Below, in pieces: positions 38,213 to 39,520 of a stretch of 64,000 nucleotides of DNA. Position 1 is the stretch's first letter; each line of letters starts with the position of its first letter. Under the pieces are notes generated by a model. It worked only from the letters and a program-made list of their open reading frames with translations. It ran no database searches and was not told where the DNA came from. The DNA comes from an uncultured Rhodospirillaceae bacterium (GTDB taxonomy: Bacteria; Pseudomonadota; Alphaproteobacteria; UBA11136): positions 4,195-68,194 of the forward strand of contig CAZAKR010000012.1 of the NCBI GenBank assembly GCA_964486105.1, in the 5' to 3' direction. A program made the translations under genes and the position numbers.

Positions 38213-38251
38213 TTGTATAGGCTGTGCCTATATGTATAGACTGCGCCCATG
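38213..38251 (+). promoter_or_regulatory. Putative leaderless promoter overlapped by two 17-bp operator-like sites
   Basis: TTGTAT-18nt-TAGACT-6nt-ATG. Palindrome TATAGGC-TGT-GCCTATA (38216-38232) and degenerate copy TATAGACTGCGCCCATG (38235-38251). Confidence 0.6.
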
Positions 38252-39520
38252 AGTATCGGCAACAGATTAAAAGAGGCCCGGGAACGGGCCGCCATGTCGC
38301 AACTGAAGCTGGCCGAGAATATGGCTGTCAGCCAGCCGACTGTTTCCGACTGGGAGCGCGACGCCCATCAGCCGACCCGCGCCAATCTGCGTGTCGCGGC
38401 CGAAATTCTCGAAGTTTCGGCAAACTGGCTGGAATTTGGTGACGACAAAAAGCAGACCCGGCAAAAAGACGGCTCTCCCCCGGCCCGGCCCCGGACAGAC
38501 GAGACAAAGCCCGGCAAGTTCCGTCATCATCCCGGCTTTCCCCGCATAAGGCTGCGCCGCAATCGCCGCGATGCCTGGTCCCGCGCCCTGGTCAGGGAAA
38601 GCCGCCTAAGCGTCGATGATCTGGTCTGGCCGCTTTTCGTCCAGGAAGGCAAGAACGAGACATCCCCAATTCCCTCAATGCCCGGTGTTGAGCGCCTCAC
38701 CATCGACCATCTGGTGAAAGCAGCCGGAGAAGCGCACGCCCTCGGCCTGCCCGCCATCGCCATCTTTCCCGTCGTACCGCCGGCTAAAAAGACCGATAAC
38801 GCGCAAGAGGCCGTCAATCCCGACAATCTGGCCTGCCGGGCGGTGGCCGAGGTCAAGGCCGCCCATCCCGATCTCGGCATTATCTGTGATGTGGCCCTGG
38901 ACCCCTATACGCCCCACGGTCAGGACGGGCTTTTGCGCAATGGTGAGATCGTCAACGATGAAACGGTGGACATGCTGTGCCGCCAATCCCTGGTTCAGGC
39001 CAAAGCCGGCTGCGACGTCATTGCCCCTTCCGACATGATGGACGGACGCATCGGCGCCATCCGCGACGCCCTCGACGGGGAAGGCTTTACCCATGTGCGT
39101 ATTCTTTCTTATGGGGCGAAATACGCTTCCAGCTTTTACGGCCCCTTCCGCGATGCGGTGGGGTCGGCGGCGGCGCTCGGCCTGGGAGACAAAAAGACCT
39201 ATCAGATGGACTCAGGAAACACCGACGAAGCCCTGCGTGAAATCAGGCTCGACCTCGACGAAGGCGCCGACATGGTGATGGTCAAGCCGGGGATGCCCTA
39301 TCTCGACATCATCCGCCGGGTGAAAGACACCTTCGCGGTGCCTGTCTTTGCCTATCAGGTCAGCGGTGAATACGCGATGATGAAGGCGGCGGCGGAAAAA
39401 GGCTGGCTCGACGACAGTGCCGTGATGATGGAAAGCCTGCTCGCTTTCAAGCGCGCCGGCGCCGATGGAATTTTCACCTATGCCGCCGCTGATATCGCCC
39501 GCAAGCTATTGAAATCCTGA
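38249..39520 (+). CDS. hemB: XRE/Cro-C1 HTH domain fused to porphobilinogen synthase (Zn-independent type)
   Basis: About aa 1-64 is HTH ([10 protein letters not shown]...[16 protein letters not shown]...P...L...A..L.VS.NWL.FG). HemB motifs follow: [47 protein letters not shown]. Confidence 0.93.

Follow-up and report, generated by a model that had tools for sequence, protein, structure and literature searches.

Proteins that combine an enzyme with a nucleic-acid-binding part in one polypeptide are already known as a kind, BirA, NadR, PutA and RbkR (an archaeal riboflavin kinase joined to a winged helix-turn-helix) being examples. The gene considered here, located in a 64,000-nucleotide (nt) stretch of contig CAZAKR010000012.1 from an uncultured Rhodospirillaceae bacterium (the whole of which is called the window below), encodes a protein of the same general build, in which a helix-turn-helix (HTH) domain is followed by a linker and by porphobilinogen synthase (HemB). 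Unlike in these trigger enzymes, the enzyme is porphobilinogen synthase, the added domain is a phage-type XRE HTH and not a winged helix or a ribbon-helix-helix, and the candidate target is the gene's own promoter only. For RbkR, the accessible part of the published account predicts autoregulation through palindromes of 16–20 bp (PMC5397151).

The closest HTH sequences belong to the P22 C2, 434 cI and lambda cI repressors and to cellular HTH-S24 repressors, in which a palindromic operator lies over the repressor's own promoter. The P22 C2 and 434 repressors bind palindromic operators as dimers. In lambdoid and S24 repressors the N-terminal HTH needs a C-terminal module for dimerisation, and in the fusion HemB takes that place. 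In textbooks porphobilinogen synthase is a single-domain enzyme, and it is also the model 'morpheein'. The enzyme of Pseudomonas aeruginosa (structure 1b4k) matches the HemB part end to end, with both lysines and the Asp-rich motif shared, and the fusion adds about 95 N-terminal residues before the arm, a segment that shapes the octamer/hexamer equilibrium of HemB according to the accessible part of PMC7729013. On the regulatory side, it was as a hemB repressor that Irr of Bradyrhizobium japonicum was first recognised, according to PMC1698941. The Irr system is comparable in that haem synthesis in Alphaproteobacteria is there, too, regulated at the hemB step; Irr, however, senses haem and iron and is a protein of its own, of the Fur family, whereas the putative regulator described here is part of the enzyme.

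What is new at this locus is a conserved palindrome on the presumed promoter of the HTH-HemB gene, shared with genes in which an HTH of the same type precedes prephenate dehydratase. We regard it as moderately likely that the protein is a self-repressing enzyme-regulator in which the HemB oligomer supplies dimerisation. The elements concerned are as follows, with the basis of each assignment in brackets.

38249..39520, plus strand: HTH-linker-HemB gene, 423 amino acids (aa) plus stop codon (open reading frame listing with ATG start; Pfam; NCBIfam)
38249..38440, plus strand: XRE/Cro-C1 HTH, residues 1–64, five helices (Pfam; AlphaFold2; profile comparison; ratio of nonsynonymous to synonymous substitution rates, dN/dS)
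38441..38533, plus strand: disordered linker, residues 65–95, variable in length and sequence, without a start codon (predicted local distance difference test, pLDDT; insertions and deletions; dN/dS)
38534..39517, plus strand: complete porphobilinogen synthase including the N-terminal arm, residues 96–423 (alignment with 1b4k; invariant lysines)
38216..38232, no strand assigned: candidate operator, 17-bp palindrome TATAGG-CTGTG-CCTATA, 16 nt before the ATG (uniqueness and conservation)
38213..38240, plus strand: inferred core promoter, TTGTAT (38213–38218), 16 nt, TATAGA (38235–38240), followed by 8 nt and the ATG (sequence reading)

Pfam places HTH_3 (PF01381) at residues 7–61 (37.4 bits against a cut-off of 23) and ALAD (PF00490) at residues 100–418 (461.5 bits, E 1.7e-138, profile positions 2–316 of 317), and the NCBIfam porphobilinogen synthase model PRK09283 scores 508.2 bits against a cut-off of 297. 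The same Pfam analysis found no Peptidase_S24 or other self-cleaving or repressor C-terminal domain in the 423-residue protein, and neither of the best NCBIfam models for the HTH reached its cut-off (DicA, NF007257, 53.2 bits against 101; RstR, NF041951, 45.2 against 80). Judged by these models, the protein is a full member of both the ALAD and the XRE-HTH families and stands outside the S24, DicA and RstR repressor families. Among solved structures, the HTH profile finds the N-terminal domain of the P22 C2 repressor (E 3.8e-14), with that of the 434 repressor also among the best, in line with the phage-repressor-like character ascribed to the domain in the first-pass annotation; the rest of that description (one 423-residue frame made of an HTH of about 64 residues, a charged Pro-rich linker and an intact HemB) was correct in every detail checked. 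The AlphaFold2 model (mean pLDDT 84.0, predicted template modelling score 0.72) has HTH helices at residues 3–13, 18–25, 32–36, 44–54 and 58–63 (block pLDDT 84–94), pLDDT below 50 over residues 67–95 and a confident barrel after that.

The HemB part aligns over residues 96–420 with residues 9–333 of 1b4k (E 5.8e-129). K291 (YGAKYAS) and K346 (VMVKPG) fall on K205 and K260 of that enzyme, which we take to be its two active-site lysines, and are invariant across 50 sequences. The metal motif is Asp-rich, not Cys-rich, its counterpart in 1b4k by alignment being DVALDPFTTHGQDG. An Asp-rich motif marks the Zn-independent class of porphobilinogen synthases, the class to which the enzyme had been assigned at first reading. 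No second ALAD gene occurs in the genome (2.06 Mb, 23 contigs, 97.8% complete), and the fusion is therefore the housekeeping hemB, as had been supposed; the same genome encodes 5-aminolevulinate (ALA) synthase (642 bits), so that the tetrapyrrole pathway is in use. Catalytic activity and octamer/hexamer assembly are presumably retained with the HTH attached, to judge from the sole ALAD and the ALA synthase.

The fusion is real and not an assembly artefact. HTH and HemB share one stop-free frame in all six species genomes of the order (two genera), so the relatives do not carry two separate genes; the copy in genome G001 is broken off by the contig end at residue 39, and the full 404-residue protein of the G001 type is supplied by metagenome contig L105. 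In addition, a 3119-nt contig from a different study (run X9) covers 38072–39600, and with it the junction, with 0 differences. PF01381 together with PF00490 occurs in 8 of the 120 best-listed protein clusters (417–429 aa), the other 112 having PF00490 only, and fused loci make up 6 of the best 80 metagenome loci. One of the fused clusters carries the source name 'porphobilinogen synthase' only, and public annotation under this plain name hides the fused architecture.

Comparison of the regions upstream of the fused genes gives the invariant TTGTATAGG...CCTAT, that is TATAGG-N5-CCTATA. The eleven fused loci with upstream DNA come from five genomes and six metagenome contigs, some of them possibly from the same populations; the palindrome is exact in eight and has CCTATG in one arm in the other three, its 5-nt spacer occurs in seven versions, and its distance to the ATG is 16 nt in nine. 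The palindrome has a single match in the window, with none in 100 shuffles, and a single exact copy in the 2.06-Mb genome. It is found, at up to one mismatch, at none of 14 unfused hemB loci of other families, among them L018, which retains the marR-hemB-hydrolase synteny; it is retained in G004 and G005 though marR is absent there. Helix 3 of the HTH, QPT[VI]SDWERD, is invariant in seven of the eight fused clusters, and the eighth has QPTVSGWERD, with one residue changed. These observations suggest that the palindrome is the operator of the HTH. The candidate target they point to is the gene's own promoter only, which supports autoregulation and not a pathway regulon.

Several details of this upstream region may be recorded separately. 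The CCTATG arm is limited to the lineage of G004, L107 and L110, whose helix 3 reads QPTISDWE and not QPTVSDWE, which could reflect co-variation or shared descent. G002 (L075:1434-1500) and G003 (L078) have an extra stretch of about 40–50 nt between the palindrome and the called start; it resembles repeats of the first codons (ATGAC[CT]CTG...), each stopped after a few codons, and a mini-ORF of 4 codons starts from the ATG at the ancestral position. The one further match in the genome at up to one mismatch lies inside metG, in the codons of the 'HIGH' motif; this near-palindrome, TATAGGCATGGCCGATA with variants, stands at G000:C3:37241-37257 and likewise in G001, G002, G004 and G005. As an operator it was rejected, since its recurrence is explained by the coding of PHIGHAYT, a signature of methionyl-tRNA synthetase. 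A genome search at 2–3 mismatches gave no convincing further operator sites, with a division into coding and intergenic sequence, based on third-position GC content, that was too crude.

The strongest evidence for the palindrome as an operator comes from other proteins with the same type of HTH. A search with a profile made from only the HTH covered a sample of 401 genomes of the class, and the best loci were four HemB fusions and 26 others, which by Pfam comprise 8 with HTH plus prephenate dehydratase, 13 with HTH plus Peptidase_S24 and 5 without a second domain. The prephenate dehydratase fusions, listed here from Pfam, occur in genomes G245, G076, G227, G055, G177, G399, G099 and G284, of families other than that of the HemB fusion.

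L080:586-1695, L081:625-1695, L084:613-1701 and L086:565-1701, minus strand: HTH-prephenate dehydratase
L093:637-1695 and L100:583-1695, minus strand: HTH-prephenate dehydratase
L083:1492-2580 and L085:1501-2577, plus strand: HTH-prephenate dehydratase

These proteins (353–379 aa) resemble the HemB fusion in their HTH, in its N-terminal position, in the short linker that follows and, in several of them, in an identical or nearly identical palindrome 13–23 nt before the ATG, and differ from it in enzyme and lineages; the HTH of the two kinds of fusion is 40% identical. The fusions of G055 and G227 have an exact TATAGG-CTAAG-CCTATA 23 nt before the ATG. For an exact match at 12 positions, the roughly 3,900 upstream positions give a chance expectation of about 2e-4 by simple arithmetic. 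L081 has TATACG-CATTA-CGTATA 13 nt before the ATG, L093 a near copy of it at 20 nt, and L080 TATAGT-N5-CTGATA at 14 nt. A similar upstream palindrome is found in S24-type relatives from Alphaproteobacteria, the genes of L079 and L082 having AATAGG-N5-CTTATA. The palindrome type thus goes with the HTH type whatever enzyme follows.

How such a protein might work can be outlined from these features. The HTH of one bifunctional polypeptide would, we infer, bind DNA by recognising TATAGG-N5-CCTATA over the gene's own core promoter, and the bound protein would block that promoter, presumably repressing and not activating it, so that negative autoregulation of hemB would keep the amount of the only HemB constant. 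The promoter read from the sequence is TTGTAT-16 nt-TATAGA-8 nt-ATG, with the palindrome apparently overlying the -35 hexamer and the spacer, and no Shine-Dalgarno-like motif occurs in the 25 nt before codon 1; the transcript is possibly leaderless or nearly so. The half-site centres lie 11 bp apart, which is one helix turn, and the HemB dimer or octamer would hold two HTHs on the two half-sites through flexible linkers. Because the 64-residue HTH is without an oligomerisation module of its own, the HemB oligomer is the presumed scaffold. Relatives carry at the C-terminus either an S24 domain or a tail; among those with an HTH only, the nearest come from Betaproteobacteria, are about 115–120 aa long and have a tail that is missing from the fusion. 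As to origin, an autoregulated phage-type repressor gene likely landed before hemB together with its promoter and operator and was then fused to it. If true, a DNA-binding HemB with a recognisable operator would be a simple, testable case of an enzyme that sets its own level, and if the oligomer state matters, a change in quaternary structure would be coupled to transcription.

A number of points weigh against self-repression and have to be set beside this evidence. All HemB fusions derive from one event, and the eleven loci are therefore not independent. The palindrome is not enriched genome-wide, and in the reversed-pattern control in G001–G005 there were 2–12 one-mismatch matches per strand as compared with 1–3 for the palindrome, so that the case is built on position and orthologous conservation. 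The palindrome stands 67 nt from the called start in G002 and 56 nt in G003. A sigma-70 consensus scan of 37900–38300 returned 0 promoter-like sites, and among the sequencing-run records no RNA run is listed as containing the 5' end of the gene (run X11, guessed to be RNA, has two short contigs, both inside the HemB part only). The fusion, joined at the N-terminal arm, might upset octamer assembly. Finally, the HppE epoxidase is among the matches of the HTH profile, and an XRE-like domain can have a structural role within an enzyme.

The last of these points gives rise to the first alternative, namely that the HTH-like domain is a structural or protein-contact appendage that does not bind DNA, with the palindrome being a promoter element or the site of another regulator. 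HppE is an enzyme with an XRE-like domain, and other regulators do exist, a MarR-family protein being encoded nearby and four Fur-family genes elsewhere in the genome. An appendage would hardly account for the palindrome type accompanying the HTH type at unrelated loci that pair the HTH with prephenate dehydratase or S24, for the absence of the palindrome at unfused hemB loci, for its persistence in G004 and G005 without MarR, or for the near invariance of helix 3, and we consider this explanation improbable. A second alternative accepts that the protein binds the palindrome but holds that it activates its own promoter, or both activates and represses it, as lambda cI does at PRM and as MerR-type factors do from within a promoter spacer. 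With weak predicted hexamers and an empty consensus scan, a helper could be needed, and the palindrome lies inside the inferred spacer. A site spanning about -33 to -17 normally blocks RNA polymerase, however, and this is where the palindrome falls relative to the inferred start, a placement that is itself inferred; activation, too, therefore appears improbable to us.

The linker bears on a further alternative. Its 31 residues include 5 Pro, 9 Lys/Arg and 5 Asp/Glu. For six orthologues, dN/dS estimated pairwise by the Nei-Gojobori method is 0.04–0.31 for the HTH and 0.10–0.21 for HemB, and 0.52–1.68 for the linker within genus g2, where dS is unsaturated. The orthologues differ by several in-frame insertions and deletions in the linker, one of them a 19-residue difference inside the window's own genus, and the frame is preserved across every one. 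The HTH, for which dN/dS had been proposed as a check, is thus under purifying selection; by these estimates the constraint on it is as strict as that on the enzyme, and the linker, near neutral, is kept only as a tether. In-frame ATG, GTG or TTG codons before codon 160 occur at codons 1, 16, 25, 144 and 156 only, so that the linker and the N-terminal arm of HemB contain none, as had been noted at the outset for the linker. A disordered, almost neutral linker could be the target of a protease, and a 73-aa database protein (P0015) ends inside it, as might be expected if the fusion were a route to two products, a Cro-like repressor and HemB as separate proteins in equal quantity, through linker cleavage or translation restart. 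Against this stand the lack of a start codon between codons 25 and 144, the lack of an S24 or other self-cleaving domain and the preserved reading frame. P0015 is most simply a gene cut at a contig end, and two products seem to us very improbable. An assembly chimera or a frameshift artefact joining two genes, for which nothing speaks beyond the metagenomic assembly of most sources, is a negligible prospect given the same architecture in 6 genomes, 8 protein clusters and 6 metagenome contigs, the contig from another study without a single difference, and the purifying selection on the HTH.

Self-repression by the HTH-HemB protein may be part of something wider. In a bolder version, an XRE HTH with its promoter and operator would be a portable self-repression cassette that has repeatedly exchanged its dimerisation domain for an oligomeric allosteric enzyme, HemB in one case and prephenate dehydratase in another; the octamer/hexamer/dimer equilibrium of HemB, set by ALA, Mg2+ or downstream tetrapyrroles, would then decide how many HTH pairs reach the operator, and hemB transcription would read tetrapyrrole flux. 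We hold this version to be possible but doubtful. If HemB did act as such an equilibrium sensor, haem synthesis would have its first trigger enzyme, and nature would provide an instance of quaternary-structure switching used as a transcriptional sensor. That prephenate dehydratase is fused in parallel to a related HTH, and with the same operator, suggests that phage-type repressors have a general route to domestication as autoregulators of biosynthetic enzymes.

With respect to distribution, the fusion is, within the sequences sampled, conserved but limited to a small uncultured lineage, which is marine according to the source listing of the sequencing runs. In the class sample, an N-terminal profile (A1) matched in frame over positions 1–138 only in the four genomes of this family that the sample included, the remaining listed matches being to the HemB arm alone or to the HTH alone; no fusion was among the matches listed for the unpublished genomes G243 and G045. 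A scan of 185,579 species genomes, whose patterns were specific to this HTH and could detect close relatives only, found the full N-terminus on three named contigs of metagenome-assembled genomes. The search for other N-terminal HemB fusions turned to those 20 further genomes of the class whose open frames before hemB are longest; the 18 long frames taken from them had 0 Pfam matches. A protein word search with residues 1–100, in which only the query's own cluster passed among 83 candidates, was uninformative, and the ESM Atlas gave no usable match. In a representative protein library the best 150 matches of profile A1 were dominated by multi-HTH-repeat proteins, with ALAD in 0 of the 20 scanned, a result that says nothing on distribution; the top scores in that library belong to proteins with 5–17 tandem XRE HTH repeats and up to 2332 aa (P0002–P0014 and others). 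A literature search by title and abstract, with supplements outside its scope, found no published report of an HTH-HemB or HTH-prephenate dehydratase fusion.

The genes on either side of the fusion are the following.

37417..37941, minus strand: divergent MarR-family gene (LdtR-like, below cut-off), a neighbour outside the unit (Pfam; NCBIfam)
39526..40401, minus strand: convergent alpha/beta hydrolase (Pfam)

The hydrolase adjoins hemB at all fused loci and at the unfused L018, and the arrangement across the order is bioF-[marR]-HTH-hemB-hydrolase. Divergence from ldtR had been put forward in the first-pass annotation as the usual alphaproteobacterial context of hemB, a view that is not borne out: the MarR neighbour scores 170.2 bits against the LdtR model NF047395 (NCBIfam), which has a cut-off of 250, and marR adjoins hemB at only one of the 14 unfused loci of other families. 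Among the five genome loci with upstream DNA it lies beside the fused gene in G000, G002 and G003 and is absent from G004 and G005, where bioF is directly divergent from HTH-hemB. In the window, the biotin operon (32610–37284, minus strand) follows downstream of the MarR gene and comprises bioF, a bioH-like gene (below cut-off), bioC, bioD and bioA.

The intergenic region also contains, at its MarR end, an overlapping palindrome that is AT-rich (TTAAATATATATAATTTAA..., 38001–38027), and G002 and G003 have a different AT-rich inverted repeat at the equivalent place; the palindrome at 38001–38027 may be a MarR operator. Beyond the hydrolase, positions 40506–48455 of the plus strand encode a CoA-transferase-like protein, a BhcA-like aspartate-glyoxylate aminotransferase (559 bits, cut-off 650), a glyoxylate reductase-like dehydrogenase and a glycerate 2-kinase-like protein, which together may form a glyoxylate/hydroxyaspartate-type cluster.

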